The translations under genes were made by a program, and so were the position numbers. Positions 3,307 through 60,953 of a stretch of 64,000 bases of DNA are shown piece by piece; the first letter of the stretch is position 1; each line of letters opens with the position of its first letter. The DNA comes from Rhizophagus irregularis (taxonomy: Eukaryota), in NCBI RefSeq assembly GCF_026210795.1, contig NC_089432.1, forward strand, positions 2,790,001 through 2,854,000, written 5' to 3'. The notes beneath the pieces are model-generated. The model searched no databases. It saw nothing but the letters and a program-made list of their open reading frames with translations, and was not told the origin of the DNA.

Positions 3307-4023
3307 TAGGGATGGTTAGGTCGGTCCTGGTCCGGTCCTGGTCCTGGGACCTATAAGTCCTATTGAACGAACCTGCGGACCAGGTCCTGTTAGGACCAGT
3401 CCTGGACCTGGTCCCAGGACCTGGTCCTGACTAAGTTATTTATAGATTTTATGAATTTTAGTAATAATTAAATATTAAAAAAGTGAGTTGCGATATCGGG
3501 ATTCACTTTTTTATATTGATTTTATATAAAAAAAGTGAGTTGCGGTATCGGGATTCACTTTTTTATATTGATTTTATATAAAAAAAGTGAGTTGCGGTAT
3601 CGCGATTCACTTTTTTATATTGATTTTATATAAAAAAAGTGAGTTGCGGTATCGCGAGTCACTTTTTTATATTGATTTTATATAAAAAAAGTGAGTTGCG
3701 GTATCGCGATTCACTTTTTTATATTGATTTTAATATAAAAATGTGAATCGCAATATCGCAACTCATTTTTTATATGATTTTAATAATATAAAAATTGTAT
3801 TGCAATATTGCAGTGCACTTTTTTATAATTTATAATTACTTAAAATCAAATTTACAGCAAATTATACATATATAATTTAAACATATAGGTCTCTTATAAC
3901 CTTATTGGCTAGGACTTTTTAGGACCTGGTCCGCTTCTGGTCCAAAATTTGGACCTAAAGATCTGCAGACCAGGTCCTAGGACCAGGTCTTTAGGTCCAG
4001 GACCTAGGACTTTACCATCCCTA
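3307..4023. mobile_element. Non-autonomous hAT-type TIR element (MITE)
   Basis: Ends TAGGGATGGT...ACCATCCCTA; perfect 8-bp TSD ATTATCAC at 3299-3306 and 4024-4031; subterminal GGACC/GGTCC repeats. Confidence 0.9.
3477..3830. repeat. 52-bp tandem repeat of palindromic units inside the MITE
   Basis: GTGAGTTGC recurs at 3483, 3535, 3587, 3639, 3691, plus 2 degenerate copies; unit core AAAAAAGTGAGTTGCGGTATCGCGATTCACTTTTTT is an imperfect hairpin. Confidence 0.9.
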
Positions 4024-7565: not shown

Positions 7566-8140
7566 GTTTTTGATGAATTTTATTAAGTCCTTCAATAGTA
7601 TTAGTTAATACACTTAATTCATTAAATCAATCAAAAACTTCATACTTTTTATTTAAATAACTATTGAAATCTCCACCTTCTGCATATTCAATAACCATAA
7701 TATAATCATTTGTAGTTGGATTTTTAAATTATAAAGAAATTTCATACCTCATTTATAAATTCACCAAGGAAATTTTGTGAATTATGTAAACATTTTAAAG
7801 CAACTTTTGTATTTGATTCTCTTTTCCATTTATAATCAAGACTCATTCCAGGTCCTATATTACAATAGGATAATAAACCATCATTCCATATTACCGAATA
7901 TACTGTAGAGAAACCACCTTTACCAATTTCTTTAATATCATTAAACTGATCATATGGTATCCATTCAAATATCATACCAGAATCACTAGAATTATGATCA
8001 ATATTTAATTTTATTTCTTGAATTAAATCACTAATTTTGTTATTTTCATGATTTGTTTGACATGACATACAACTTTTATTATTTAATTCAAACTGATTAT
8101 TGTATTTTTTGCTACAGTTTTCACAATAATATTTACATTG

Positions 8141-8439: not shown

Positions 8440-9673
8440 TGATGAGTATAAAAACTAGAACAAAATCTCTTGTATTTGGATTTTGAGATACTCCATAACT
8501 TTCCTCAACTGAATATAAGATCTATTAAAATATAAAATCAATATATTATTTTCATTAATAATTAAATTAAATTAAATTTTCAAAAAAACTTCATGCCTCA
8601 TTTAAAAACGCGTGATTAATATTTTGTGAATTATATAGATATTTTAATAAAATCTTTTCATCTGATTCCCTTTTGTAATTCCTTCTTATTTTGCTATAAT
8701 ATAATGGTCCATCCTTCCATATTGCTGTAGCAAAGACACTATTTTCTATTTCTTTAACATCAATAAACTTATTGTATGGTATCCATTCAAATATCATATC
8801 ACCATATTCATTGAGTTTTAATTGCATCTTTTTGATGAAGTCATCAATTTTCTCATTTCCACTAGTCCAGTCTGCAAAATCATTTTTTAAACGATTCATT
8901 TCACGTGATTTACACCAATTATTATAAGCATTCTCGTCATATTTGTTTTCACATTTTAAACAATAATGATTAATATAATTATTATTAAAGACCAAAATAT
9001 AATCTCTTGTATCTGGATTTTGAGATATTCCGGAGACTAGAAATATGATTTAACCTATCAAATACAAAAAATCAAAAATTAATCTTATATTGTATTTAGT
9101 TTAAATAAATAAAAATTCAAATACCTTATTTAAAAATTCGTCAGTAATTTCTTGTGAATTATTTATATATTTTAAATAAACTTTTTCCTTATGTTAGACT
9201 ATTATTTCAAGTTATTTTCGTATTAGGTTAATACCCGAACCAATTTTGATATATACTCGTTTGATTTTGTATTTTTGTATCAATGTTAGAATATAAGAAT
9301 GAACCTATTTTGAAATATTTCTATTAATTATTTGTTCAATTTATCGAATGGTATTTGTATGTTATCGTTATACGAATTCAACGTTAAATAAAGTCACACG
9401 TACTGTACATTAAAAAAAAAATTTTCAAATTGATAAAATTTTCGAATAATTTGTATCACTCGGTTGAAAATTAATAGGACTCAATATTGTACGACTTAAC
9501 TGTTATTTAATGATTGCGTAATTTGTATTACACAAAAAAAAAAGGAAAAATATTTCCCGACATAATTAAGGCAAAAAATATATAATTGGTGAAGATCAAA
9601 TTTTAGGTAACATTAAATTTATATATAAAGTTCCCATTCACGACATTTTTTCTTTTTTATATTTAAAAAAAAA

Positions 9674-12151
9674 ATGGATGGTAATAAATTATTACGAAAA
9701 TTATCACAAAATTTACTTGAAGTTTTAGATGATGGCGAATATTACGATATTATGATTGAAGTTGGTGATGGTAAAACTCACGCAAAAATATTTCGTGCTC
9801 ATATGGCCATATTAAATTATCGTTCTCCTTATTTACGAGAAATTTTATTTGAAAATAAATGGAAGAATTATGATGGAACTTTAGTACGAATTGAATTACC
9901 AAATATTTTGCCGGAAATTTTTCAAGTAATTTTAAGGTATTAAAAAAAAATATATTATTTATGCATTTTATAATCATATAATTTTTTTTTTTAATCGTGA
10001 ATGATTTTTTTTATTTATTTAGATATATTTATGGAGGGAAGTTAACTTTGAAAAATTATGATAATTTATATATAATTAAATTATTGATTGCTGCTAATGA
10101 ATTAAGTATTAAGGAATTGGTTATTTATATACAATTATTTTTGATTAATAACAGAGCAAATTGGTTGGAACAAAATTTTTATTTGATATATCAGACAATT
10201 TTTGAAAGTTATTCTTTCTTAGAACTTCAAAATTATTGTAATAATTTAATGTCAAAAAATCCGAATAAGATATTCGAATCATTAGATTTCCCTTCAATTC
10301 CAGAAAAAATTTTTATTTCGATTATTCAAAATGATAATCTTCAAATGGATGTAGTTCAAATATGGAAAAATGTTCTTAAATGGGGTCTTGCACAAAATCC
10401 GGAGCTTTCTTCAGAACCTCTTAGTTATTCAAAAGATGATTTTAATAATTTAAGGAATACCTTAGAACAATGTATTCCTTTTATTAAATTTTATGATTTA
10501 ACTTCTAAAGAATTTTCGGATAATATATTACCTTATAGGAAAATTATACCAGAGGAATTATATTTGGATTTATTACAAAGCTTTTTAAATTTACACCCTG
10601 ATAGCAAATTAAATATATCAAAACCTCATATGGTTAAAGAAATTAATCCTTCTCAACATAATATAAATAAATCGATAGAAATATTTAATCCTGCACCTTT
10701 TAGCAGAACTAATAAACGTCGTGTTAGAAGATATAGACAGGTATTTTTAATGACTTTTATGATTTTATCAAGAAATATATTTTATTTTTTAAGTTTGATT
10801 TATGAATCGCTTATTAATATTTTTTTGAAATTATATTTAGAGGTTAAAGAAGGTAAATTTTTCAAATTCTCCAAAGAAATTAATTTACGTCCAATTAATA
10901 TTTTGAATTAATTTTGAATTTTTTTTTCTTTTTTTTTTTTAATCACATATAAAGATTTTTTCCCAGATTGACAGTGAAAATTGTAGTCGTGGTTTTGGTC
11001 GTGGTTTTGGTCGCGGTCGCGGTCGTGGCGGTCGTTTTGGTAGAGGTCGTGATGAAGGCGATGAAGGAGAGGTATTGATTTAATTTTATCACGAAATAGA
11101 TTTATATATATATATGTTATTTTGAAATTTATGATCAAACATTTTTTTTTTTAATCACGTATAAAGATTTGTTTTCGTGGTGGTTACGGTCGTGGTCGTG
11201 ATGAAGGAGAGGTATTGATTTAATTTTATCATGAAATAGATTTATATATATATATGTTATTTTGAAATTTATGATCAAATTTTTTTTTTTTTAATCACGT
11301 ATAAAGATTTTTTCCCAGATTAACAGTGAAAATTGTAGTCGTGGTCGTGGTCGTGGTCGTGGTCTTGGTCGTGGTCTTGGTCGTGGTCGTGGTCGTGGTG
11401 GTCGTGGTTACGGTCGTGGTCGTGATGAAGGAGAGGTATTGATTTAATTTTATCACGAAATAGATTTATATATATATGTTATTTTGAAATTTATGATCAA
11501 AATTTATTTTTATTGCTTTATTTTAAAAGACGCCTATAAATTATAGTTCATGGGATAGAGTAGTACTTGTAAGAGATACATGGAATACTGAAGAGCATTT
11601 AAAGTATACATGGGAGAAACCTACGAAGGATGCATGGGACTTCACATTGGATGGTTCTGCAGGTGAATGGGGTGAAACGCCAGTAGCGCCGCAGTCTGCA
11701 GGTGGATGGGGTGAACTCATTGAAGAACCAGAAGCAGGTGGATGGGGTGAAGAGCCAGAAGCGTTGCAGTCTGCAGGTGGATGGGGTGAAGAGCCAGAAG
11801 CGCCGCAGTCCGCAGGTGGATGGGGTGAAACGCCAGTAACGACAGCTACAGGTGGGTGGGATGAACTCATTGAAGAGCCAGAAGCGCCGCAGTCTGCAGG
11901 TACTGCAGGTAGTTTGGATGATACGCAAGTAGCGCCGCAATTTGTGGATGATGTGAAAACATCTATTTCTAGTGATTATGTTTCTGGACGGAGTACAGAA
12001 AAGGTAACTATAAAAATATTTATTAAGTATTTTATATTTAATTTAAAATTCATGAATATAATTTATCTTTTACGACAAGGATCCTCAGAGTAGCACGATT
12101 ATTGAGAATAGCAATACGAAAAAGAAAAAAAACAAAAAAAAGAAAGTATAG
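9674..12151 (+). CDS. BTB/POZ-BACK protein with RG/RGG exons, GW/WG repeat tract and basic C-terminal tail (8 predicted exons)
   Basis: Exons 9674-9936, 10023-10740, 10841-10852, 10955-11071, 11167-11211, 11307-11435, 11530-12003, 12080-12151; all introns GT-AG; frame open throughout; BTB motif FRAHMAILNYRSPYLR..LPNI.PEIF..ILRYIYGG. Confidence 0.8.
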
Positions 12152-12899: not shown

Positions 12900-15445
12900 A
12901 ATTCTACATCGGAACCTAAAAAAAATCAACCAACAAATAAATTAATACATTAGTTTAGATATGGAAGATATGAATAAAAAAGTAATATTAGTAATTCATA
13001 TATAAACTAAAAAAAGTTACATTTTAATTAATGATCAATTGCTAATTCGAAAAGATTCTAAAGATTCTATTTAATAAATAAAAATTTCATTAGTATCCTT
13101 AACAATTTTTTAAAAAAATTAAATTATTAATTAACAACTGAAAAGTCTTTGCTTACTATATTATCATTCTGTTCGTAATAATCATCAGAATTGTTTGGTT
13201 CAGGAAGATTATTAAAATTGAGAAATCTTCTTGTGTAAATAGCTTCTGAATGCGTCATATATGATATTCCTAAACAAGTTGAAGATTTACTGCTATTTGA
13301 TGAATTTTTGTTAATATTATCTGCTTCTTTAATTTGTGTTTGTAATTCTATTGTTTACTTATTTCTGAATTTACAATTCCATGTGTATAAAATATTTTCA
13401 ATTTCTTCTGCTTTTGGCCGTTTTAATGGATCTGAATCTAAGCACCTTTTAATCAAATATATAATTAATTGAGGTACTTTAATATTAAATCTTGGTCTGA
13501 GTCCTTGACAAATTCCTATAGCTAAATTTTTATTATGGCTTATATTATGGTATGATGGTAATCCAGAAATTACTTCATACATAATTATACCAAAACTGTA
13601 AATATCAGCAGCCTTGGTATAATTTTTTCCTCTTAAAATTTCAGGAGCTATATAAAGTAAAATACCATATACCTTATTTTTTATGCATCATAATTTGCAG
13701 GTTTGCATAATCCCATGTCAGTTATAACTGCATTATGTTTAAGCTTTAATATGTTACCAATATGCAAATCTCGATGAATGAATTCCTTTTCATGAATATA
13801 TTTAAGTCCAAGTATAGTTTCTTATAAATAATCAATCTTTTTATTCCAATCTAATGTACTATAATATTTATCTAAATAATTTCGTAGACTTCCATCTTCT
13901 GCATAGTCTAAAATCATCATATAATTTCTGTTTCTGGATCCTGAGTTATTCCATAAAATTCAATAATATAATTATTGTTTAATTTTCCTTTATTATGCAA
14001 CATAATCTATAGGCAAGTAAAGTTATAATATATTAGTAAAATTAATAATTTTAGTATTTAATTACTTTAATAAATTTAATTAATAAAGTTAATATACCTC
14101 ATTCATGAATTCCAATGTGACATTTTTTGAATTATCTAAACTTTTTAGTGCCACAAACTTGTTTTTATTATTTCTTTTCCAATTTTTATTATTGAAATCC
14201 AATTTATCTATATAACCATCAACCCAATTTGCTCTATACACTTTGCCAAACCCTCCTTTTGTAATGTATTTAATATCTTATAACCTATCATAAGGTATCC
14301 ATTCTAATACTGTTTTAAATACTTTATATCTAACATGAGCCAATAGCTGAGTATCTTGAATAAATTTATCAATATTATTATTACCACTAGTCCAGTTTAC
14401 AAAATTTTGTTGAATATGAATTGCATTACATGTATAATTACATTTTTTACATTTATCTTTCAAAACCATTATATAATTATTTGTTTCTGGGTTTTGAGTT
14501 ATTCCATAAGATTCATTTATCTACAAATATAATACGTTAGCAAAAATACAAATTTCAAAATTTTCATTTAATATATTAGATATAGTAGTACCTCATCCAT
14601 AAATTTTGATTTAATATTTTTTGGTTATTTAATATTTTTAGAATCACAACAGTATTTCTATTTCTTCCCCAATTTTGTTTTTTATAATTCCATTCATAAA
14701 TATATCCATCAATCCAATTTGCTCTAAATCTGCTTTTTATAGTGTTATTAAATCTCATTCCAATGTTGTTTCTGCGTTTTCATGAGCTGATAACTGAGTA
14801 TCTTGAATAAATTTATCAATATTATTTTATTACCACTAGTCCAGTTTACAAAATTTTGGTTGAAAATAAATTGCATTACATGTACAATTACATTTTTTAC
14901 ATCTATCATTCAGAACCATCATATAATTATTTGTTTCTGGATTTTGAGTTATTCCATAAGATTCATTGATCTACAAATATAGTTTACATTAGCAAAAGTG
15001 CAAATTTTAAAATTCATTTAATAAATTAGATATACTTCATCCATAAATTTTAATTTAATATCTTTTAAACTTTTAAGAGTTACAAGTACGTTATGACGCC
15101 GTCTATTCCAATTTTGATTTTAATCATTCCATTCATAAATATATATCCATCAATCCAATTTGCTCTATATGTTTCGCCAAATCTACTTTTTATAGTGTTA
15201 TTAAATCTATTAAAACGTATCCATTCTAATGCTGATTTTGCAATATTATGAGCTGACAACTGAGTTTCTTGAATAAATTTATCAATATCATCATTACCAC
15301 TAGTCCAATTTCCATGTTGGAAAAGTACTGCATTACACGTGTAATTACATTCTTCACATATTTTATTTAATTCATTAACATTCGATGACTTAATTAGCTT
15401 CTTGATACTTTTAATAAAAGAATCTATTACCACAAATGAATTCAA
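12900..15445 (-). pseudogene. TKL protein kinase pseudogene with three tandem CxxC/WTSGN N-terminal modules
   Basis: KGGFGKVY, VALK, HRDLHIGN, TDMG and APE motifs present but broken by stops and frameshifts; repeated CKKCNYTCNA..WTSGN..IDKFIQ units. Confidence 0.8.
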
Positions 15446-25141: not shown

Positions 25142-26507
25142 TTAAACGATATCTTCAACAATTTTATGAGGATCTAAACCCTCAAATACGATTCTATAAA
25201 CGGTTGTAAATAGAGGAAATCTATCGAGGAGAGAAAAAAATAAGGAATTAAGTAAATTTTTGAATGAAATATATTTTTTATAAAAATATTAAGTTTACTT
25301 ACTCTTTCTCCAATCCTTTTCGATGTAAAACTAAGTAGATTTCTTTTGCAGTAAGCGTTCCTTGTAATTTTTGACCATTGAGAAGTTCTTTCTCCAATTG
25401 TTCAAATGACTAGGAAGTGATTCATATAAGATACGTTAAGATACGTTAGCATACAAATACTAAACTATATAAAAATGCACATATAATATATTATATAACT
25501 ACTAATTACCTTTCCTGTAACAATGAATGCCTCAGCAGCTTTTCTATTTCTACCGCCATAACAAGTTGTAATTACATCAGCAATACCACAGCTTTCAAAG
25601 AAAGTTTCATCCTTGATACCCTTATAAAACATTTTAATATACTTTTTCATCTCCAATAAACCAATTCTAATAATAGCAGCTTTGGTATTTTCACCCAATT
25701 TTAAACCATCAATCATACCAGCACCTATAGCGATAACATTTTTTAATGCACCACATAATTCAACCCCTAAAACATCATCGACTATATTAACCTTAAAATA
25801 TTTTGTTTCAAATAACCTTTTAAATAATTTTCCTTCATGACGATTCTTATATCCAATTGTTGTTTCGGAAAACTTTTCTTGTGCAATTTCATTTGCTAAA
25901 TTTGCACCAGAAAGTGTACAAACCGAAATTTTCAAAGCTTCTTTGATCAAATGTGATATTGGACGAATTCCTGATTCTGTGGTATAAAATCCTTTAACTA
26001 AAGAGATAGCTTTAACTTTTGGATGAACATTTCCTTTTAATTTATCACATACACCATTTACAAACTGAAACAAAAAAAAAATATATTTTTATGTTATAAG
26101 TGAAAGTTCTTCAAAAATATTGTTACACTGAAATAAGTAAATAATAGTACCTGATGAGGAATAACTATTACTAAAATCGTAGCACCTTTGGCAGCTTCCA
26201 CGACATCAGGTACAGCTACAACATTTTCAGGAATACTAACTCCGGGTAAATATTTTACATTTTCATGTTTTTCGTTGATTAGATCAGTTAATTTTCTTTC
26301 GCCGATCATTTCTTCAAAAACCCACATTTTAATTTCATGTTCGAATCCACTCTGTTGAACAACATTTGTTCCTAATATCTTCGCAACCACAGTACCCCTG
26401 TAGAAAGTAGATTTTGATTAGTAACGAACGTTTGTATTACTGTCTAAAGATAATAATATTATATACCAATTTCCACTTCCAATCACAGCGACTTTCTCTT
26501 TAATCAT
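25142..26507 (-). CDS. GPD1: Glycerol-3-phosphate dehydrogenase (NAD+), multi-exon
   Basis: [15 protein letters not shown]ossmann motif, [37 protein letters not shown]; canonical introns. Confidence 0.93.
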
Positions 26508-33164: not shown

Positions 33165-36100
33165 ATGACTCACAGTAATGATAAGGGTAATAATTATATA
33201 TAATATATAGCATATAATTAGAACTCTAAAATTTTTAACAAATTTGCAATGCAATAAAATTAGTTTCCAAAGAATTTGAAGGAAGTAGTACCGAGGAATC
33301 TAAAGGTATATTAAACTAGCTGAAATATTAAATTTTTATTTGTAAATAATTTAAATACTATCAATAATTGTACCTTATATTATATAAAAATTATATTAAA
33401 TAATTTAGCTCGTAAGTTAATAGGTTATATTATAATTGAATAATAATGGAATTACTTAACATTTCTATTACATTTCATATAACTCATTAAATAATTAATA
33501 ATACTATAGTTGGTAAGTTATTAGTTATTTAAATCTTTAGTTTTTGCTTTATTTATTTTACATATTATTCAATTAACTAATTCTTTATTTAATAAATAAC
33601 TATTTAATATTGTATTACAGAAGGTAAGTTAAACTATCATATTTATTTGTTTAATATTTTATATAATTCAACTGATTATATTCTTAATTTAAATAACCAG
33701 ATTGTAAGTGATATTTAATTTGCAGTAAATATTTTTGTAATGTATTTATATCTAACTAATAATTAATTAACAATACTAGGGTGTAAGTTATAAATACATA
33801 TATTTTATATTATTTATATAATTTAAACTAATTAAATTCTTTATTTAAAAAATTATTTTATAGGTGGTATGTTATTTATTTAATTCTATTATTACTGATT
33901 TATATAATAATTACATATAATTTAAACTAACTAAATTCTTTATTTAAAAAATTATTATACAATCCAATATAGAGAGTAAGTTATTTATTTAATTATTTTA
34001 TTAATTATTTATATAATATTTGCATAAAATTTAAACTAACTAATTTTTTTATTTAAAAAATTATTGAATAACAATATAGAGAGTAAGTTATATTTATTTA
34101 ATTCTATTATTACTTATTTATATAATATTTATATATAATTTAAACTAACTAATTTATTTATTTAAAAAATTATTAAACATATAGAGAGTAAGTTATTTAT
34201 TTAACTATATTATTACTTATTCATATAATATTTACATATAATTTAAACTAACTAATTTTTTATTTAAAAAATTATTTTGTAATTTATTTTAGTTAGTAAG
34301 TTATAAGTTATTTATTTAATTTTATTATTACTTATTTATATAATATTTATATATAATTTAAACTAACTAAATTCTTTATTTACATAGTTTGTAAGTTATA
34401 AGTTATTTATTTAATTCTATTATTACTTATTTAACATTTATATATAATTTAGACTAACTAAATTCTTTATTTAAAATATTATTTAATTATATAGGGCGTA
34501 AGTTATTCTATTTTTACTTATTTAAATAATATTTACATATAATTTAAACTAATTAAATTCTTTATTTAAAAAAATTATTTTATAGATGGTATGTTATTTA
34601 TTTTATTCTATTATTACTTATTTATATAATAGTTATATACAATTTAAACTAAATTCTTTATTTAAAAAATTATTTTATAGATGGTATATTATTTATTTAA
34701 TTCTATTATTACATATTTATATAAGATTTACATATAATTTAAACAAATTCTTTATTTAAAAAATTATTTTACAGATGGTATGTTATTTATTTAATTCTAT
34801 TATTACATATTTATATAACATTTACATATAATTTAAACTAACTAAATTCTTTATTTAAAATATTATATAATAATACAGGGTGTAAGTTATTTATTTAATT
34901 TTATTATTACATATTTATATAATATTTACATATAATTTAACTAACAATTCTTTATTTAAAAAAATTATTTTATAGATGGTATGTTAGTTATTTACTTAAT
35001 TTTATTATTACTTATTTATATTATATATACATATTATTTAAAATGACTAAATCCTTTGTTTAAAAAATTATTTTATAGATGGTATGTTATTTATTTAATT
35101 CTATTATTATTACTTATTTATATAATATGTATTACATATACTAATTTAAACTAACTAAACTCTTTATTTAAATAGTTTGTAAGTTATAAGTTATTTATTT
35201 AATTCTATTATTATTTATTAATATAATATTACATATAATTTAAACTAACTAAATTCTTTGTTTAAATAGATTGTAAGTTATAAGTTATTTATTTAATTCT
35301 ATTATTACTATTATTACTTATTTATATAATATTTTATAATTTAAACTAACTAAATTCTTTATTTAAAAAATTATTTTATAGTTGGTATGTTATTTATTTA
35401 ATTCTATTATTATTTGTTTATATAATATTTACATATAATTTAAACTAACTAAATTCTTTATTTAAAAAATTATATAATATAGGGCGTGAGTTATTTATTT
35501 AATTATATAATATTTATATATAATTTAAACTAAATTATTCTTTATTTAAAAATTATTTTATAGTTGGTATGTTATTTATTTAATTCTATTATTATAATAT
35601 TTACATATAATTTAAACTAACAATTCTTTATTTAAAAAATTATTTAATAATATAGGGTGTAAGATATTCTATTATTACTTATTTATATAATATTTACATG
35701 TAATTTAAACTAACTAAATTCTTTATTTAAAAAATTATTTAATAATATAGGGCGTAAGTTATTTATTATTACTTATTTATATAATATTTACATATAATTT
35801 AAACTAACTAAATTCTTTATTTAAAAAAATTATTTTATAGATGGTATGTTATTTATTTAATTCTATTATTACTTATTTAGATAATCTTTAAATGTAATTT
35901 AAACTAACTAATAAACTCTTTATTTAAAAAATTATTTTATAGATGGTATGTTATTTATTTAATTCTATTATTACTTATTTATATAATATTTATATACAAT
36001 TTTAAACTAACTAAATTCTTTATTTAAAAAATTATTTTATAGATGGTATGCTATTTATTTGATTCTATTATTACTTTATTTATATAATATTTATATATAA

Positions 36101-37663
36101 TTTAAACTAACTAAATTCTTTATTTATAAAAATTATTTAATAATGTAGCTCGTAAGCTATTTGTTGTTTCTATTGTTATATTTTATATAGTATTTATTTG
36201 TTGATTGAATTCTTTCATTTAAATTTCTGTTACTTTAGTTGGTAAGTCGTAGGTTATTATTATATATTTTACAAAAACTAATGCCGTATATTATATTAAA
36301 TTTCTTCTTAAATTTAGAGTAAGTGTTGATTTTAATACTGTAACTTTTAATGTAAACTTTAATATAATTACAATTATTCAAATTTATAGATTTGGAAAAA
36401 GTGGAAATATAAATATGGATAATTTTATTTTGAAAAACAAATTAAAATGGATTCCTTATGATAAATTTAAAAATGCTGAATATCTTGATAAAGGAGGATT
36501 TGGTACTATATATAAAGCTAATTGGCTAAATAATAATGGATATAAAGAAGTAATTCTTAAATGTCATAATAATTTAAATGAAAATTTAAATGAGTTTTTA
36601 AATGAAGTATGATAATATATTATTTACTTTTTAGATTAAATATCTAAATTATAATTTATTTATACTAATACATTATTATTTTTTTATAGTGGAAATATCA
36701 CAAAAGTTGCTTAAGTTCAGATAAAATTATTTATTTTTATGGATTTACAAAAGATCCTAATACTTTGAAATATATGGTAGTAATGGATTGTGCAAATAAA
36801 GGTAATTTAAGAGGAAACTTAATGAGAGTAATCAAAAAAAAATGGAGTCAAAAATTATATATGTTATATGAAATTATTTCTGGACTTAATAATATACATG
36901 AACAAAATCTTATTCATTGTGATTTTCATGATGGCAATATTTTAGATCATAATTATGAAGATAATGATAAAATTTATGTTAGTGATTTAGGTTTATGTCG
37001 ACCTGTAAAATCATTTTTGAAAGAGCATAGTATTTATGGTGTATTACCATTTATGGCACCTGAAGTTTTAAGAGGCAAATCTTATACTCCAGCTAGTGAT
37101 ATTTATAGTTTTTCTATGATTATGTGGGAATTTACATCTGGTATACCACCATTTAACGATAAAGCACATGATATCCAACTTAGTTTAAGTATTTGTAAAG
37201 GTGAACGTCCTGAAATTATTGAAGATACTCCACAATGTTATGTAGATTTAATGAAAAGGTGTTGGGATGAAGACTCATTAAATAGGCCATCTTCTAAAGA
37301 AGTTTTAAGTATTATTGAAAATTGGATTTTTCGTTCTTCAGATAAGAAAATTAAAGATATTAATGAAGAATTAAAATACAATATTATGGAATTTATAAAT
37401 GCGCCAATTGGGCATAACAATAATCTTTCTAATGAGTCTCATCCACAGGCATATAATACAAGTCGCTTACTTGGTTTTACTAGTAAAGAATTGAATGAAA
37501 TTCTTGAAAGTAAAGATTCACCAGATTTGGATGATTGTATAGTTTTATTAGGTGTGTAATATAGTATATAAAAAGAATTAATTTGCAAATTATTTATGTG
37601 AGTTAACTTTATTTATTTAATTGTTTAGATACTAAAACAGTGTGTTTTTATAAGAATTTATAG
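33165..37663 (+). CDS. Intact TKL protein kinase whose N-terminus is encoded by 31 micro-exons (36 predicted exons)
   Basis: Exons 33165-33186, 33264-33305, thirty 3-nt exons (33409..36241), a 1-nt exon at 36318, then 36390-36606, 36690-37551, 37629-37663; GGFGTIY, VILK, HCDFHDGN, SDLG and APE all present. Confidence 0.8.
33306..36389 (+). repeat. Tandem array of ~70-110-bp intron units (GTAAGT/GTATGT...ACTAAC...YAG) separated by 3-nt exons
   Basis: 32 GT-AG units; central units near-identical (TAATTTAAACTAACTAAATTCTTTATTTAAAAAATTAT). Confidence 0.9.
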
Positions 37664-38105
37664 TTTTTTTTTAGTGATATTTGATGTCATGCATTTAACA
37701 GAAATTGTTGTTTAGATTTATTTAAACACTAATAAGGCTAGAGTAGTAAAATATCTTACAAGATTCTTAGTTTGTAATTTAAATAATTCCTTTTTTTATA
37801 GCTTATCCAAGTATTAAATATTATATTCTCTTTTATTTTACTTAGAATTATTTAAACACTAAGACTAGAGTAGTAAATATTTTACAAGTTTCTTACTTTG
37901 CAATTTAAATAAATCTTTTTTTTATAACTTTTCCAGTTATTAGATAAATCATCAAAATAATAATATAAGTATAAAAAATCATTATCAATTCATAAAATTG
38001 AAAATTTTTATACTCATTTAAGTAGATAATTGTTTTTAATTTATATTGTCAACCTTTATTTTTAGTATTATTTAAAGAAAATTTCTCACTGGCAGTCATG
38101 TTGTG

Positions 38106-38833: not shown

Positions 38834-40943
38834 TTATTCATTTAATTTATATTTAGCATTTTGATATCCTTGTTCAGCAGATTTTTTAAACAAACAAATT
38901 GCTTGACTTATATCTTTTTTAATTCCCATTCCATCTTTATAAAAAAAAGCAAGATTATATTGAGCCAAATAATTTCCTAAATCTGTAGCCTTTTTATATA
39001 ATTCAAATGATTTCTGATAATCAATATTAGTTCCAATTCCTTTTTTATAACACCATCCTAAATTACATATTCCAAGTAAATTTCCTAAACTTGCTGACAT
39101 TTGAAATAATTCAAATGCTTTTTGATCATTAATAAGAACCCCAATTCCATAAAGATAACAATTTCCTAGATTATAAAGTCCACGTGCACTTTCTAAATTT
39201 GCAGCCTTTTGATAAAATTCAAATGCTTTTAGTTGATTAGCAAAGGTTCCAATTCCTTTTTCATAACAATAACCTAAACTAGTTATTCCAAATGTATTAT
39301 TTAAATTTGAAGACTTTTGATATAATTCAAATGCTTTTTGTTCATCAACATTAATTTCAATTCCAAAATAATTAAATACTCCAAGTAAAAAAATAGAATC
39401 AGAATTTTCCTGATTATTAAGTAACCAATTATAAATTTCTTGTGAGGATACATTATGATTATCAAGATATTTAACAACTTTACATTTTCTCATTTTTATT
39501 TCTATATTTTCAAAAAGAGAAATTATTTCAACAACCATTATTTCAAAATCATTCATGATTAGATCTGATGAAATTGAAGGATCTATTTCATTTATATCAA
39601 TCCTACTAAAATTTTGAATAATTTGAGATATTTGTAAATTATTATTAATTACGTTTTCAGAAATTTCATTATAATCGTTTAATTGAATTTCTGAAATAAT
39701 TGTATTTAATTTCATAACAACCTGATTGATAGTTGGACGATTATCTGGTTCATTATTCCAGCAATCTAAAATATAATAAAATAAACTTTTATAAATATTG
39801 TTATTTTAAAATAATATATAATAATTAAATTTAATTAGTATATTTACCAGTATATATTTTTATGTAATCTTTAGGTGTATTGAGAGTGGGCTTCTCTCTA
39901 AGACCTTGTAATATTTCCATAGCCAAACCAACATCATATGGCTCATTACAAAAAGGTGGACGTCCACTAGAAATTTCCCATAAGAGTATGCCAATACTGT
40001 ATATATCACTCTTTTTGCTTAATGTATATATTTGTAATTGATTATTGCTATCTCTTCTATTAAAAATTTGTGGATCGATATAAGTAACCATTCCGAACAA
40101 TTTTGATTGAACATTAGATAATTCTTCAATCCTTTCTGATAATCCAAAATCAGTCAATTTGATGGTATTCTTATTAACTAATATATTATTTGAGTGCTAT
40201 TATTAAATATAATATGTATTAGATACTATAATCTTGCAGTATAATTTAATATAATATAAATTTAATAAATAACCTACCAAATTACGATGTACGATTTCTT
40301 TATCATGTAAGTATGATATTGCATTAGATAATTGAAATGCCAAATTTAATTTATCATTCCAAGTGAGGTTTTCAAAGTATTCACTTAAATAGTATCGAAG
40401 GGTACCATTGTCGGCATATTCCATCACTAACAAATATCTTTTTGAATCATCACTTTGGATTTCTTTTGAAAGAAAAAAAAATTATTTTAGATTTTTTTTC
40501 ATATGCGTATAATATGTATATATTTTTTAAAAATATTTGTAATATCGCACCTGATGTAATACCATAAAAGCGAATTATATTTTCATGAAAATCCATTTCA
40601 CGATGAAGTTTAAGCTAAAAAATAAATGAAATTATAAATTAGAAACATAATTTATTATAATACTTCATAAGAAATAAATACTAATAATCATATAAATTAC
40701 TTCATTAACAATTTCTTTGGTAATGGTATCAAAATTAAAAAAAAGTTTTAACGCTAAATAATTATGAGAATTATTCCAATTTGCACGATATACTTTTCCA
40801 AATCTTCCAAGACCAATTCCTTGAATATTATTAAAATATTTATAATCATAATATTTAATTTGTTTTTTTACAATAGATTCTTCAATCCAATTAATCCACT
40901 CCTTTGAATTATCAATAAATTTAATTTCAGTGTTATTAGACAT
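38834..40943 (-). CDS. TKL kinase-like domain plus Sel1-like repeats; catalytic HRD reads HRN
   Basis: GLGRFGKVY, ALK, HRNL|HSNN, TDFG; C-terminal LG.CY..GIG...KAFE.Y.KAA repeats; conserved intron positions. Confidence 0.85.
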
Positions 40944-42303
40944 CGTAAATATCAAATTTTTTACTGTGGAAGTTAATTTACGTCAAAAAGGTTAAAAAGA
41001 TTTAAGAAAAAAAAAAAAGAAAAAAAGAAATTTTATTCCGTTTATAGTTAGTAGAACATGAACACATTCCAAAAAAATAAATTTTGTGTAATTTGTTAAG
41101 TCAGCAAGAAAAAAAATTATGAGTAACAACGTCCTACGTCACACAGATCGTTATGGCCTGCATTTGGTTACATTTGAAAATCTGGGACACAGATCGGAAT
41201 TTTCATACAATTTATTCGGCTTAAAGTCATATTTTAATATTCTAGTATTCTTAAAAATTTTAATATTTAATTTTTTTCCAATAAATGTTTTAAAATTCTA
41301 AAAAAAAAAAATATTAAACTTAATTTATCTGTTATAGCGTAAATGCATATCTTCATAATCTTCATAAGAAAGTGATGATTGCCTTGATAAATTTAATTTA
41401 TAAGTCCATTTATGCGGACAGAAAATAAAAGTCATTTGATTAGACAATTTATTAAAAATCTGTCATGTAGCCGGAGTAAAATATCTGATATAAAACAAAA
41501 AAATAAAATAATCAAGTGATATAAAAGTGAATTTGAAATATTAGCAAAAATTTTGATTATTTAAAAGAAAAATGTTGACAATATATTGTTCCAATAGACA
41601 TTTTGTTATAGGATTAAGAGTACAAAGTTTTAATAAAAAAAAAATAACAAAAGAGTAAAAAAAAACTAATGCTCAAATTATGATGATATTGACACAACTG
41701 ATATAATCATAATAGAGATTTTTAATAAACATGTAAAACTTTAAAACTTAAGGTTTAAACATCCCGCGTAAATTTGGTAATTCATTTTTAATTATTATGT
41801 AATTTTTATTTTCTTTCATAAAAAATATATTAATATAATAATTGAATATTCTTTATTTCAAATTTATTCATAAATAAACAATATTTATGCTCAAGTAAAT
41901 AAAAATACCAATTCAGTTTTATTCATTAATTAGGTTTAAATCAGAAATGTAACGGAAAATTGGTTCCAGATTGTCTGAAATTTTTATTTCAAATTTGATT
42001 TAATTTTTACAAACGATTGTTTATGCTTTCATCAGTAAGAATTTTAAAATTATAAATAATTTATACGATAATCTATTCAATTATAACTAAGAATTTTGGA
42101 AGATGTCTCAAATCTAAAAATGATATTAAAGGGCGGTAATGCAGATCAATAAATCGGAAAAAATACGGCCCGGAAACAAATTAAATGATCACCTGGATTG
42201 TGCAATGATCGGAGTAATTTCCGCTTTTGATTTCTCATTATAAATATAAAAAAAAAATTTTATTTTTCTTTTTTTTTAAATACTTATATTACAAAAATAA
42301 CTA

Positions 42304-43854
42304 ATGGAACCCGAATTTAGTAAATTAAATATCTCAGGTGGAAATTCTAATTACAAAAATTGTTCATATTGTAATAATCCCTTTACTGAAGAATTATGGT
42401 GTAAAGAATGTGACCCATTTAGAATAATGGAAGGATGGACCAGCGGAAATTCTGATATTGATAAATTTATAAAAGATACAATGTGTAAGCCGAAAAATTA
42501 TAGTCGTGATTATGATAATTATTCATTTCTTGAATGGGTACCATTTGATAGATTTACAGATATAAAAGAAATTGGTGAAGGTGGATTTTCCAAAGTATAT
42601 TCTGCAACTTGGATTAATGGTAAATCATATTATGACGAAAAAAGTGATGGAAGTTGGAAAAAATTAGAACCTGAATCTATGGAAATTGCTTTGAAAAGGT
42701 TAAATGGATCACAGAATATGTCAGATAAATATTTAAATGAAGTACGTTTTTATACTATTTTGTATCTTATTTAATTTATTTCATTTGGGTGTTTAATAGT
42801 ATTAAATTATTTTATTTTAAATTTATTAAAATATAGCTTAAAATACATTGGGAAATTTCTAACAAAAGTGGATTATCATTTTATGGATTAACTAAAGACC
42901 CAGAAACTAAAGAATTTATGATGATTATAGAATTTGCTAGTAAAGGAAATTTGAGAAATGTTCTTTCAAATAACTTTAGTAACATTATGTGGGAATGTAA
43001 AATTAAATATTTAATGTATATATTAGTTGACTTAAAACAATTACATAAATTAGGATATTGCCATAAAGATTTTCATAGTGGGAATATTTTACAAACTGTT
43101 GTTACTTTTATTTCAGACTTCGGATTATCTGGACCAGCAAATGAACAAAAATCAGATGATAAAGTAGTATATGGAGTAATGCCATATATTGCACCAGAAG
43201 TCTTAAACGGAGAACCATATACATCATCATCCGATATTTATAGTCTAGGTGTAATTATGGCTGAATTATCATCAGGAAAACCACCTTTTTACAATAAAAA
43301 ACATGATTTAAGTTTAGCATTAGCCATATGTAATGGACTCAGACCAGAATTTGGAAAAGGAACTCCTGAATTTTATAAGAAATTAGCTTATAAATGCATG
43401 AGTGCCAATCCAAATGAAAGACCAGCAGCTGAAGAATTAAAAAAAATATTTGGTTTCTGGGATAGTTTTATTACAGGTAGTGAAAATAATAAAGAAAAAT
43501 ACGGTTATAAAGGAAAAGAAATTAAAGCAGCATTTGAAGAAGCTGATAAAGAAATACCAAACATCTCAACTTCGTATGAAAAGAATTCTGATGCTGTATA
43601 TACCAGTAGAGCGTTTACATTTAGCGATTTATTACCAAAACCCGTTAATTCATCCATTATTACTTCATATGTTAATAATGAAGGTATTTTCTATTTTATT
43701 TAAAAATTTTATTTTTACTTGAATAATTATTAATTTTATTATTTCAATAGTTAGTGACTCTCAATTAATCGACTTGGAAGTGTCTAATTCAATACAATTA
43801 AAAGGCACTATAGATATTGACGATGAAAGTAAGATTGATTATTTAGTGAATTAA
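42304..43854 (+). CDS. TKL protein kinase with N-terminal CxxC...CxxC module
   Basis: CSYC..WCKEC, GEGGFSKVY, IALK, HKDFHSGN, SDFG, APE; three predicted exons, frame intact. Confidence 0.85.
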
Positions 43855-44429
43855 ATATTATTTATTTATAAGTTATAGTATAACAGTATAATTGGTAACT
43901 TAATTCCTTGTAATCTTATGATAAAATTAAGTGACTTAAAAAATTTTATATTCATATACATATATATTAATAAACTTATGCATGTTTAAAGTTAATATAT
44001 ACTGTATAATTATTTGTAAAATTCTGGTATTATAGCCTACCAGCTGTAAACAAAGAATTTAGTTATTTGAATATTAGTATGTAAAACAAAACTAAAAATT
44101 TAACATAGAATATGATAAAAATAATAAATAATTCCATTATTATTTAATTATAAGATAACCTATTAACTTATGAGCTAAATTATTCAATAAAATTTTTATA
44201 TAATATGGTTAGTTTGTGTATTATGTATTATATATAGGTTTATTTATAGATAAGTATTTAAATTATTTTGCAAATAAAAATTTGATATTTCAACTTGTTT
44301 AATATACCCTCAGATTCCTTGATACTATTTATTTCAGATTCTTCAGAGCTATATACTACCAGAAATTAGTTTATTATATTGCCAATGAACATACTATATA
44401 TATGATTTTTACTTTTATCATTACTGTGA

Positions 44430-54977: not shown

Positions 54978-57108
54978 ATGTCTAATAATAACAATATTAA
55001 CATTAACGAAATACAAAGTGAAGAAAATATAAAAGAATGTATTAATTGGATTGAAGAAGCTCTTACTAAGGAATATTTTAAATACTACGAATTCGAAAAT
55101 TTTAAACATATTCAAGAAATTGGTTCCGGAACATTTGGAAAAGTTTACCGTGCAAATTGGAAAAATTTTGAACATTATTTAGCGTTAAAATCTTTTTTTA
55201 AGCCCAGTAATATCACCATAAAAGAAATTGTTAATGAGGTAAATTTATTGAAATACATAAAATAAAATATTTTATCTTTTCTTAATAATAATTATTATAC
55301 ATTCACAATTTAGCTTAAACTTCAACGAGATGTAAATTTTCATGCCAATATTATTCGATATTACGGAATTACAAAACTTGAATCAGGTATTTGATAAAAT
55401 ATTTAATAATTATAATTAAATTATATTAATTTAAACTTTTTTTTTTTTGCAAAATCTAACAAAAATTTTATTTCCCTTTTTTTTTGTTAGAAAATAAAAT
55501 TGATCAAACAAAAAATTATTTGTTGGTTATGGAATGCGCAGATGGTGGTACTCTTCGAGATTATTTGAAAAATAACTTTAATAGACTTACCTGGAAACAT
55601 AAATATAACTTGGCTTACCAATTAGCTTGTTCTGTATCATTTCTGCATGATGAAGGGATTGTTCACCGAGACTTGGTAATCTTTTTATTTAATATAAAAC
55701 GATAATATGTTTATTTCATAAAAGCTAATTTGCCTTTATTTGTACTAGCATTCCTGTAATGTGTTGGTTCATCAGAATTCCATCAAGTTGGCGGACTTTG
55801 GGCTATCAAAAAGGATTGACGAGGCATCTAATTCAAAATCAAAATTACTTGGTATGGTGCCCTATATTGATCCAAAAATATTATTGTTCAACAATTTAAA
55901 ATTAAATGAGAAGAGCGATGTATATAGTATTGGCGTATTGTTATGGGAAATATCAAGTGGGAACCCACCATTTCATGAAGAATCAAATAAGTCTAGTTTA
56001 ATGTATGAAATTTTGTATGGTCGAAGAGAAAAGATTATTCCTAATACTCTTAATGATTATTCTAATCTCTATACTGGTAAATATAATTTCAATATATTAA
56101 ATATAACATTTTTTCTTACTATTCATCAAAATAATTATTTAGTCAAATTATTATTATTAATTATTAGAATGTTGGAAAGGTAAACCAAACAATCGACCAT
56201 TCATGCATGAAGTTGTTGATAGGTTAGAAAATTTTATTTCAAATTTAAATAGTGATATTTCATCCGAGAATTCAAGCATAATAGTTAATGAAATAATTGA
56301 TCTCATTTTTAAGGAAGTTAATAAAAGAAATGTGTCAAAACCACATGTTCTTGATTATATTACTAATCATAGTATAAATTCAAAAGAAATTTATAATAGG
56401 TTATTAAATAATCAAAATACTCCGAATTTCATTTTTTTACTTGGATATTTTAATTATGTAGGAATTGAAACAATTAAGAATCATGAAAAAGCATTTAATT
56501 TATTTATAAATGCATCTGAAGAGGGTCATATGTTAGCAAAATATTTGGTTGGACATTGTTATGAATTTGGAGATGGAATTATAAGAAATGATAAGCTTGC
56601 TTTTGAAAATTATGAAAAATTGGCTAATAAAGATTATGCAATAGGACAATTTAAATTAGGTTGGTTTTACAAAAATGGATTAAGTGTTAAAAAAGATTCA
56701 AAATTAGCTGTATATTGGTATGAAAAAGCTGCAAATAATGGAAATTTGATAGCTATGTCTAATCTTGGCCATTCATATAAAGATGGAAATGGTGTTAATA
56801 AAGATAACCAAAAAGCTTTTGAATTATTTAAAAAATCAGCTGAAGGAGAATTTTCAGGTGGAATAATGATGTTAGGATATTGTTATGAACTTGGTATTGG
56901 AATTGATATTGATAAGCAAAAAGCAGCTGAATTATACCAAAAAGCTGCAAATTTAGGACATAAGGCAGCACAATATAATCTAGCATTGATGTATGAAAAA
57001 GGAAACAGTATTGAAAAAGATTTGAATAAAGCAATTTATTGGTATGAAAAATCTGCTAATCAAGGAGATAAAGATGCTCAAAATAAATTAAACATACTCA
57101 AAATTTAG
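54978..57108 (+). CDS. TKL kinase plus Sel1-like repeats (tandem copy 1)
   Basis: GSGTFGKVY, ALK, HRDL|HSCN, ADFG; Sel1 repeats in the last exon. Confidence 0.88.
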
Positions 57109-58673: not shown

Positions 58674-60953
58674 ATGTCTAATAATAACAATATTAACGAA
58701 ATACAAAATAAAGAAAATACAAATGAATGGATCAATTAGATTGAAGAAGCTCTTACTAAAGAATATTTAAAATATTACGAATTTGAAAATTTTAAAAATA
58801 TTCAAGAAATTGGTTCCGGAGCATTTGGAAAAGTTTTCCGTGCAAATTGGAAAAATTTTGAACATTATTTAGCGCTAAAATCCTTTTTTAATCTTAATAA
58901 CATTACCGTAAAAGAAATTGTTAATGAGGTAATTTCTATTTGAATTTGCAATATTCTTCAATAATAATAATTTATTTTTGCGTATTATTTTTATATTTAT
59001 TGTTTTTTTTTTTATAATACATTCATAATTTAGCTTAAACTACAACGAGATGTAGATTTTCATGGCAATATTATTCGCTTTTATGGAATTACAAAATTTG
59101 AGTCAGGTATTGATAAATTATTAAAATAAAATTTATTTAATTAAATTTATTTTTTCTTTTTTTTGCAAAAACTAATAAAACTTTGTTTCTTTTTTTTGTT
59201 AGAAAATAAAATCGACCAAACAAAAAATTATTTGTTGGTAATGGAATACGCAAACGGTGGTACTCTTCGAGATTATTTGAAAAATAATTTTAATAGACTT
59301 ACTTGGACCGATAAATATAATTTGGCTTATCAATTAGCTTGTTCTGTATCATGTCTACATGACGAAGGGATCGTTCACCGAGACCTGGTAATCTTTTTTC
59401 TTAATATAAAATAATAATATGGTTATCATAGAAGCTAACAAGCCTTCATTTGTATAGCATTCCTGTAATGTGTTGGTTCATCAGAATTCTATCAGGTTGG
59501 CGGACTTTGGGTTATCTAAAAGGATCGACGAAGCATCTAGAACACGTTCAAAATTACTTGGTATGGTTCCCTATATTGATCCAAAAGTATTAATGAACAA
59601 CAATCTAAAATTAAATGAGAAAAGTGATGTGTATAGTATTGGCGTATTGTTATGGGAAATATCAAGTGGGAACCCACCATTTTATGAAGAGTCAAATAAG
59701 ATTGGTCTAATCTACGAAATTTCACAAAATCGAAGGGAAGAAATTATTCCTAATACTCCCAATGATTATTCTAATCTCTATACTGGTAAATATAATTTCA
59801 ATATATTAAATACTGTATAAACATTTTCAAAATAATTGTTTGATTAAATAAATATTATTAATTATTAGGGTGCTGGAATGGTGAACCAATCAATCGACCA
59901 AATATACATGAAGTTGTTAATAGGCTAAAATTCATTTCAAATTCTAGTAATAGTGTAACAACTTGTCAACAGAATGATATATCTAACCAAACTAATTCCA
60001 AGTTAAGTGAAATTCTAACTCCTAGTAGTACTATAATTTCATTACATGGAGAATTATCTCAAATGATCGAAAGTTTTAATAATATGAATACAAATGAAAT
60101 AGATATGATGACTAGTACAATTAAGCAAATTAATGATAATGTTTCATCTGAAAATTTAAGCATAATAGTTGACGAAATAGTTGATCTCATTTTTAAGGTG
60201 GGTAATAAGTGGAATGTGGTAGAACAGCATGTTCTTAATTATCTTAATAATCATAATATAAATTCAAAAGAAATTTATAATTGGTTATTAGATAATCAAA
60301 ATATTTCAAATTTCATATTTTTACTTGGGTTTTTTTATTATGCTGGAATTGAAACGATTAGGAATCATGAAAAAGCATTTAATTTATTTATAAATGCATC
60401 TGAAGAGGGTCATATATTAGCACAATATTTGGTTGGACATTGTTATGAATTTGGGGATGGAATTATAAGAAATGATAATCTTGCTTTTGAAAATTATGAA
60501 AAATTGGCTAATAAAGATTACGCAATAGGACAATTTAAATTAGGTTGGTTTTATGATAATGGATTATATGTTAAGAAGGATCCAAAATTAGCAGCATATT
60601 GGTTTGAAAAAGCTGTAAAAAATGGAAATTTGGTAGCTATGTTTAATCTTGGCATTTTGTATATAAATGGAAATGGTGTCGATGAAAATCATCAAAAAGC
60701 TTTTGAACTATTCAAACAATCAGCTGAAGGAGAAGATTTAGATGGAATCATGTTGTTAGGAGATTGTTATAATGATGGAATTGGAATTAATATTGATAAG
60801 CGAAAGGCAGCTGAATTATATCAGAAGGCTGCAAATTTAGGACATAAAGTAGCTCAATATAATCTTGCTACAATGTATGAAAAAGGAGGCGGCATTGAAA
60901 AGGATTTAGATAAAGCAATTTACTGGTATGAGCAATCTACTAAACATATATGA
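58674..60953 (+). pseudogene. TKL kinase plus Sel1-like repeats (tandem copy 2) with premature stop
   Basis: In-frame TAG at 58737-58739 where copy 1 has TGG (WINW); otherwise collinear with 54978-57108. Confidence 0.8.

Follow-up and report, generated by a model that had tools for sequence, protein, structure and literature searches.

How does a protein kinase gene come to carry dozens of exons no longer than a codon, and what does such an array make of the protein? The question is raised by a gene of Rhizophagus irregularis that lies in the window analysed here, a stretch of 64,000 nucleotides (contig NC_089432.1, positions 2,790,001 to 2,854,000 of the forward strand; coordinates below count from its first letter). 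At this locus 30 sites of three bases and one of a single base are probably spliced together ahead of the kinase domain, and the array has probably grown and been reordered by unequal exchange within the cores of its introns.

The microexon array and its host gene

A splice-signal scan finds 30 consecutive YAG-NNN-GT sites, that is, 3-nt exons, on the forward strand between 33409 and 36241. Together with a single 1-nt exon at 36318 they are bracketed by 32 GT-AG introns of 71-109 nt, every one of them in phase 1, so that each residue is built from two exons. A strict donor pattern retains 29 sites in the array versus four isolated sites on the forward and two on the reverse strand in the rest of the window; those elsewhere are never clustered, and no second array of 3-nt exons is present in the 64 kb. 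When the same splice-pattern scan is run for other exon lengths between 0 and 12 nt, it returns 0-7 sites per strand. Splicing the ATG exon, exon 2, the 31 microexons and two kinase exons in silico yields a single open frame of 413 residues with the kinase motifs in place, in which the microexons are predicted to encode about 31 residues directly before the kinase domain. The parts of the gene, all on the forward strand, are as follows.

33165..33186 (+): predicted coding exon 1, with the ATG; 22 nt, ending in phase 1 (gene model; similar leaders in the public paralogue models P0005 and P0008)
33264..33305 (+): predicted exon 2; 42 nt, acidic Ser/Glu leader, ending in phase 1 (gene model)
33409..33703 (+): outer 5' microexons 1-4 (3 nt each, at 33409, 33510, 33621 and 33701), with diverged introns (splice scan, intron comparison)
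33780..36151 (+): central array, microexons 5-29 with 24 related introns of 78-109 nt, whose core carries a CTAAC-type branch motif in most copies
36239..36241 (+): final 3-nt exon, TTG; the identical triplet ends paralogue RNA ahead of the 1-nt exon
36318..36318 (+): 1-nt exon (A), required for the frame; context conserved in the paralogue L001
36390..36606 (+): exon carrying the segment ahead of the kinase domain together with the N-lobe (GGFG, VILK) (homologue search, RNA contigs, gene model)
36690..37559 (+): last exon, with the kinase C-lobe (HCDFHDGN, DLG, APE), tail and stop (PF07714, E 3e-31; gene model)

The Gly loop, Lys, catalytic loop, DFG-like motif and APE are all located in the predicted kinase, with HCD replacing HRD and DLG replacing DFG. 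The public model P0001, which starts at an internal Met and is identical to the window gene over 64 matched residues of a 72-residue kinase-exon query, scores 135 bits against a curated profile cut-off of 23, and the kinase matches both PF07714 and PF00069. Pfam reports kinase families only, and the 413-residue model is too short for NACHT or ankyrin domains. We take the Rhizophagus group of 'kinase-like domain-containing' Tyr/Ser-Thr kinases to be of the TKL type.

A leader-like motif is present in 15 of 164 homologue models. The acidic leader is itself a short tandem repeat of EFEGS-like units, its copy number varying among P0005, P0008, P0051 and P0055, with one unit in the window gene. The public model P0123 couples an acidic leader of the kinase-family kind, resembling exons 1-2, to DUF8211, which is not a kinase domain; a mis-join or reuse of the leader may be the cause. 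Just past the kinase stop lies a 126-nt near-duplication (37712-37946).

The single-nucleotide exon and the last splice junctions

With the 1-nt exon the frame is open to codon 414; skipping it brings a stop at codon 59. A 5-nt last exon, the phase-0 reading found in four public models, was rejected: it stops the window gene at codon 53, and the consensus of paralogue RNA ends in TTGA. In L001, the one locus returned by a metagenome scan, 12 of 12 letters around the 1-nt exon are identical and the neighbouring intron sequence differs. The 1-nt exon thus rests on frame logic, conservation and the RNA consensus of paralogues.

The RNA comparison covered four of 24 listed runs (X18-X21), picked for small size or as presumed RNA, over the region 36295-36612. 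In X18, X19 and X20, which come from two studies, depth is zero at 36295-36371, and loose ends occur where the exon begins and where it stops; the ones leaving at 36606 run on like the next kinase exon. These three runs therefore behave as spliced RNA. Loose ends fall exactly before 36390 in 7, 10 and 13 contigs respectively, among the loose ends listed, with a median loose length of 93-185 nt. Their consensus finishes with the closing triplet followed by the base of the 1-nt exon and matches neither the intron end nor the 5-nt alternative. Before 36390 the contigs agree at 0.57-0.62, whereas for loose ends running downstream the values are 0.84-0.85 (X19 and X20), which indicates far greater variation among paralogues in the segment upstream. 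A reading of the three consensus ends by eye, in the frame of the kinase, meets no stop, and T or G is the final letter in 25 of 27 codons; the corresponding share is 29 of 30 in the array and 61% in the kinase exons. The RNA contigs support splicing of the last junctions in paralogues as modelled. X21, in which one contig covers the intron and no loose end is listed at 36390, was left out of the RNA support.

Some microexons have AG at their start or end (33621-33623; 33973, 34080, 34185), which creates close alternative acceptors. Their use would leave an exon of 0 or 1 nt, and in the 1-nt case the frame would shift.

Homology among the introns

AT content is very high from 33.4 to 36.3 kb (GC 0.105-0.111 at 34-36 kb), and Tandem Repeats Finder annotates the array as a tandem repeat with a unit of 95 nt and about 19 copies. 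The 24 central introns have a mean identity of 0.784 (range 0.61-0.955 over 276 pairs), compared with 0.629 for shuffled introns and 0.604 for the eight outer introns among themselves. When aligned they share a common middle core and have divergent ends, and their identity shows no trend with distance (rho 0.04, p 0.53). Homology to the intron units is confined to the array, save for one 39-nt match at 44047-44085. An earlier, sequence-only reading of this DNA had described near-identical central introns flanked by diverged ones; the greater similarity of the central introns stands, near-identity does not, and three of the eight outer introns (2, 3 and 29) retain a likeness to the central ones, with z of 7-11 under a lenient null of base shuffles, which gives the array a graded edge. 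Its view that growth was recent holds in a relative sense only, since no two units are identical; the closest pair, introns 12 and 25, reaches 0.955.

The repeat annotation speaks for an intronic minisatellite, or for an assembly artefact, with exon 2 joined to the kinase exon through few or no triplets. Most public models do skip the array or start at an internal Met, and RNA of this exact array was not seen among the contigs. The lack of identical units nevertheless speaks against a collapsed or expanded assembly repeat, the diverged outer units retain the exact 3-nt spacing, the frame is open from the ATG, and paralogue RNA carries long variable sequence up to the TTGA at the junction. We consider this explanation very improbable.

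The inherited unit

The central array falls into classes defined by the triplet, the tail of the intron before it and the head of the intron after it. Two are set out here.

33864..36045 (+): eleven NTG-class cassettes (exons at 33864, 34586, 34681, 34775, 34976, 35079, 35382, 35564, 35841, 35943 and 36043), with tail AATTATTTTAYAG and a GTAT donor
34293..35272 (+): T-class cassettes (exons at 34388, 35176 and 35270; 34293 shares the donor only), with a short tail and doubled donor

The tail AATTATTTTAYAG stands ahead of 11/11 central NTG exons and 0/13 others, and the GTAT donor follows the same 11/11 and 0/13 (Fisher p=4e-7 for each, the copies not being independent), which confirms the association drawn by the sequence-only reading. 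Its companion rule, AATATAG with a GTAAGT-type donor around GGC, GGT and AGA, survives as a class pattern and fails in its exactness: the exact tail precedes five of eight central GGY/AGA exons, the remaining three having one-letter variants, and two donors deviate (GTGAGT and GTAAGA). A third class, with a short tail, a TTT or ATT exon and the doubled donor GTAAGTTATAAGT, had been overlooked. In all, three to four cassette classes are resolved in the one array.

Across an exon, tail class equals the next head class in 22 of 23 cases; within single introns eight of the nine head-tail combinations occur, and 11 of 24 are matched. Mantel tests (23 units, 5000 permutations) give the same picture. 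The tail correlates with the next head across the exon (r=0.44, p=0.001; r=0.41, p=0.002 with the donor hexamer removed), with the exon (r=0.41), and the exon with its head (r=0.38), whereas head and tail of one intron do not correlate (r=-0.05), nor does an exon with the following exon (r=-0.01). A tree of the exon flanks, exon omitted, needs three class changes, the minimum, against a shuffled mean of 11.0. In the whole-intron tree, for which clustering by triplet class had been named beforehand as a check, six changes are counted by following exon (shuffled mean 12.0; 0/200 as low) and nine by preceding exon, and the clustering is thus present. Linkage that runs across exons but not within introns points to exon-centred units, chimeric introns and a shuffled order. 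We conclude that the inherited unit is an exon-centred cassette of tail, exon and head, with breakpoints inside the intron core.

Covariation between exons and their flanks might also arise by compensation between splice sites, not by descent. GTAT donors, the weaker ones by the U1-pairing rule, would need a G before them, and a G-ending exon indeed precedes 11/11 GTAT donors. Yet the linkage outlasts removal of the donor hexamer and reaches upstream to the length and sequence of the tail, and GTAAGT is used after three outer G-ending exons. As the sole cause, compensation is largely refuted, and we hold it to be improbable.

Block duplication and probable growth of the array

A run of cassettes, GGC-ATG-ATG-ATG (encoding WHDD), occurs twice.

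34495..34878 (+): block copy 1, exons 12-15 with the following introns, WHDD
35751..36148 (+): block copy 2, exons 25-28 with the following introns, WHDD

The introns after these exons form the best offset block, ranking 1/153 among four-intron and 1/190 among three-intron comparisons (mean 0.90), which bears out the duplication proposed from the sequence. A second proposed duplication, of CTC-TTG-A (ALE) at both ends, was rejected; the flanking intron pairs (z=1.1 and 1.4) show no homology. Unequal crossover adding one residue per unit had also been put forward, and the confinement of homology to the array, the one duplicated block and the missing identity-distance trend agree with it; the unit, however, is not an intron plus codon. 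The claim of massive intron gain is true locally, for 24 related introns that arose by duplication of existing ones, and not in the sense of new insertion into coding sequence.

Misaligned pairing between shared intron cores, followed by crossover or gene conversion, would let the array gain, lose or replace a single exon-centred cassette at each exchange, hence about one residue, and all such events would preserve the frame. The short introns would be recognised individually as the 31 microexons are spliced, and paralogues would carry similar arrays with other letters. Reordering of frame-neutral units at the DNA level is what the linkage pattern within this one array indicates; it is from this single array that we infer the engine of unequal exchange.

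Coding consequences

Since the introns are in phase 1 and each residue is set by two neighbouring cassettes, reordering creates new residues. The 11 triplets present can yield 19 amino acids, with stops in 6/121 pairs. The likely outcome is an N-terminal peptide that varies across the kinase family. That this peptide acts in recognition of partners or control of the kinase is a guess, and we would put its chances at a little under even.

The main diversifier might instead be alternative splicing, each transcript taking a different subset of the 30 exons, as in the nank genes of Tuber described below. All 30 are frame-neutral, 29 of 30 single-exon skips leave the frame stop-free and these skips give 23 distinct products; Tuber offers a precedent, and splicing of this kind could operate alongside shuffling of the DNA. 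The stops that phase-1 junctions make in some pairs show, on the other hand, that the alphabet is not proof against skipping. Such splicing is credible without being what we would expect.

Paralogues and public gene models

The 72-residue query matches 157 of 183 candidates. The 120 matches listed are all named Rhizophagus (irregularis, clarus or diaphanus), and 27 of them share the locus-tag prefix of one assembly. P0127, a public model of the same gene, carries 23 of the 30 triplets in window order, in another frame (0/100000 shuffles), its assembly possibly not being independent of that of the window. Of 22 homologue models whose N-terminus is long, four (P0028, P0036, P0057 and P0090) consist there of 86-100% array-alphabet residues versus a background of 50% (p<1e-5). 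Different letters dominate each of the four, a pattern to be expected if gene prediction took other arrays in phase 0, the way it did in P0127. A viral scan for the kinase was negative (0/48 candidates), and a scan of prokaryote genomes gave two short matches, which were taken as chance.

The window holds eight weaker matches to the 72-residue exon: 7748-7969, 8726-8863, 14218-14388, 15149-15301, 40701-40886, 42442-42630, 55050-55178 and 58740-58928. Some of these kinase genes go on into Sel1 repeats (38837-39805, 56161-57105), and none of the eight has an array of 3-nt exons. At 42301-42771, and in homologous kinases, a Cys-rich CxxC...WCxxC segment, seen by eye, occupies the place of the microexon peptide, a hint that this slot holds a module rather than filler.

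Weighing the evidence for a shuffled array

Several observations weigh against the account given at the outset. Most contigs are from paralogues: at 36476 the letter of the window is contradicted by the whole depth of X19 and X20 and by 221/226 in X18, and at 36526 too the letter specific to the window is almost missing. None of the contigs compared shows the inner microexons of the window gene spliced. The loose ends are consensus strings of mixed paralogue contigs, from runs presumed to be RNA, and splicing of the inner microexons of the window gene is something we infer. No array was seen as DNA in a paralogue. L001 extends 125 nt upstream of its match. Among the long homologue N-termini, 18 of 22 fail the p<1e-5 threshold, and the protein searches and inspected N-termini gave no database protein with the spliced phase-1 peptide. 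Support in the trees is low, with one or two starred branches only.

An open frame is weak evidence of selection, as 24% of exon shuffles are stop-free by chance, and the stop-free order was accordingly dropped as a proof. Codons change more than their flanks clearly in NTG cassettes (0.16 vs 0.03) and weakly in WTW (0.33 vs 0.19), with no excess in GGY (0.20 vs 0.21) or AGA (0 vs 0.27). These two results would suit a neutral runaway, in which cassettes shuffle, the peptide forms a tolerant linker whose variety is without function, and the number of frame-neutral units drifts. The acidic, low-complexity leader fits as well, and all the structural results are compatible with it. It sits less easily with the GT-AG ends kept intact in 32/32 introns without a single decayed cassette, with a last triplet and 1-nt exon common to paralogues, and with the occurrence of known arrays in recognition-type genes (PMC4986451, PMC9815663). 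Neutral runaway is a serious possibility, somewhat short of an even chance.

The widest form of the shuffled-cassette account would make the arrays a diversifier throughout the family in arbuscular mycorrhizal fungi. Dozens of kinase paralogues would carry split-codon arrays, with near-homologous introns as recombination handles, and alleles, perhaps even nuclei of one mycelium, would build different N-terminal recognition peptides from about 12 triplets, between them sufficient for 19 amino acids. We regard this extension as rather unlikely.

Comparison with known systems

The architecture of the array is itself already known. The nank (NACHT-ankyrin) genes of Tuber melanosporum contain arrays of dozens of 3-bp mini-exons, with alternative splicing reported as the diversifier (Iotti et al. 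2012, as related in PMC4986451, PMC10197012 and PMC9815663). Both systems have dozens of successive 3-nt exons in an expanded fungal gene family, with the possibility of single-residue variation. They differ in that Tuber nank is an ascomycete NLR, whereas the host here is a kinase of the Glomeromycota with the array N-terminal to the kinase domain, the diversification indicated here is at the DNA level, and the array ends in an obligate 1-nt exon.

In Ectocarpus, the ROCO-LRR and NB-ARC-TPR genes have one repeat per exon and are shuffled at the DNA level (Zambounis et al., PMC3341825). There too frame-preserving exon units, in a multigene family, are reshuffled inside a single gene region, but the units described are repeats of 24-42 residues, with exons that are inverted or dead and with indications of diversifying selection. 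The Rhizophagus unit is one split codon, a 3-nt exon with no LRR or TPR, and dead or inverted cassettes were not observed. Repeats of high internal similarity in fungal NLRs are reshuffled by unequal crossing over, according to PMC9815663. Internal similarity as both cause and result of unequal exchange is the engine proposed here as well; in NLRs, however, the homology lies in coding repeats, whereas here it is intronic and the coding payload is 3 nt. For the 1-nt exon the nearest parallel is Arabidopsis APC11, where an internal exon of one nucleotide is needed for the reading frame, as experimentally shown (PMC4674806). That exon is equally obligatory but isolated, and the Rhizophagus exon closes an array of 30.

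No report on microexons in Rhizophagus or arbuscular mycorrhizal fungi was found by title or abstract, in a search of incomplete coverage. What is new is the occurrence in the Glomeromycota, the position at a kinase N-terminus, the split codons, the obligate 1-nt exon and the mapped shuffling unit. Codon-sized exon arrays are thereby extended from ascomycete NLR genes to a large kinase family of a model mycorrhizal fungus, whose N-terminus public models miss or misread (P0001, P0127). The exchange of cassettes through intron homology, with split codons making residues from order alone, offers a testable mechanism for the origin and variation of such arrays, and the obligate 1-nt exon, which is likely family-wide, is material for splicing studies. 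With many public strains and RNA sets of R. irregularis, comparisons of alleles, nuclei and isoforms are practical.

Other features of the window

The remaining observations concern other parts of the 64 kb.

3472-3827: 52-nt tandem repeat of about seven copies, with an internal inverted segment
5023-5370 (-): weak match to a retroviral-type aspartyl protease, below cut-off
9629-10908 (+): BTB/BACK-type gene
11338-11424: GTCGTG repeat, preceding the next frame
11527-12090 (+): open frame with several GGWGE-type repeats (11656-11885, period 39/75 nt) and no Pfam match
25468-26417 (-): exons of a glycerol-3-phosphate dehydrogenase

The Trp-Gly repeats at 11656-11885 are, we presume, reminiscent of Argonaute-binding hooks.

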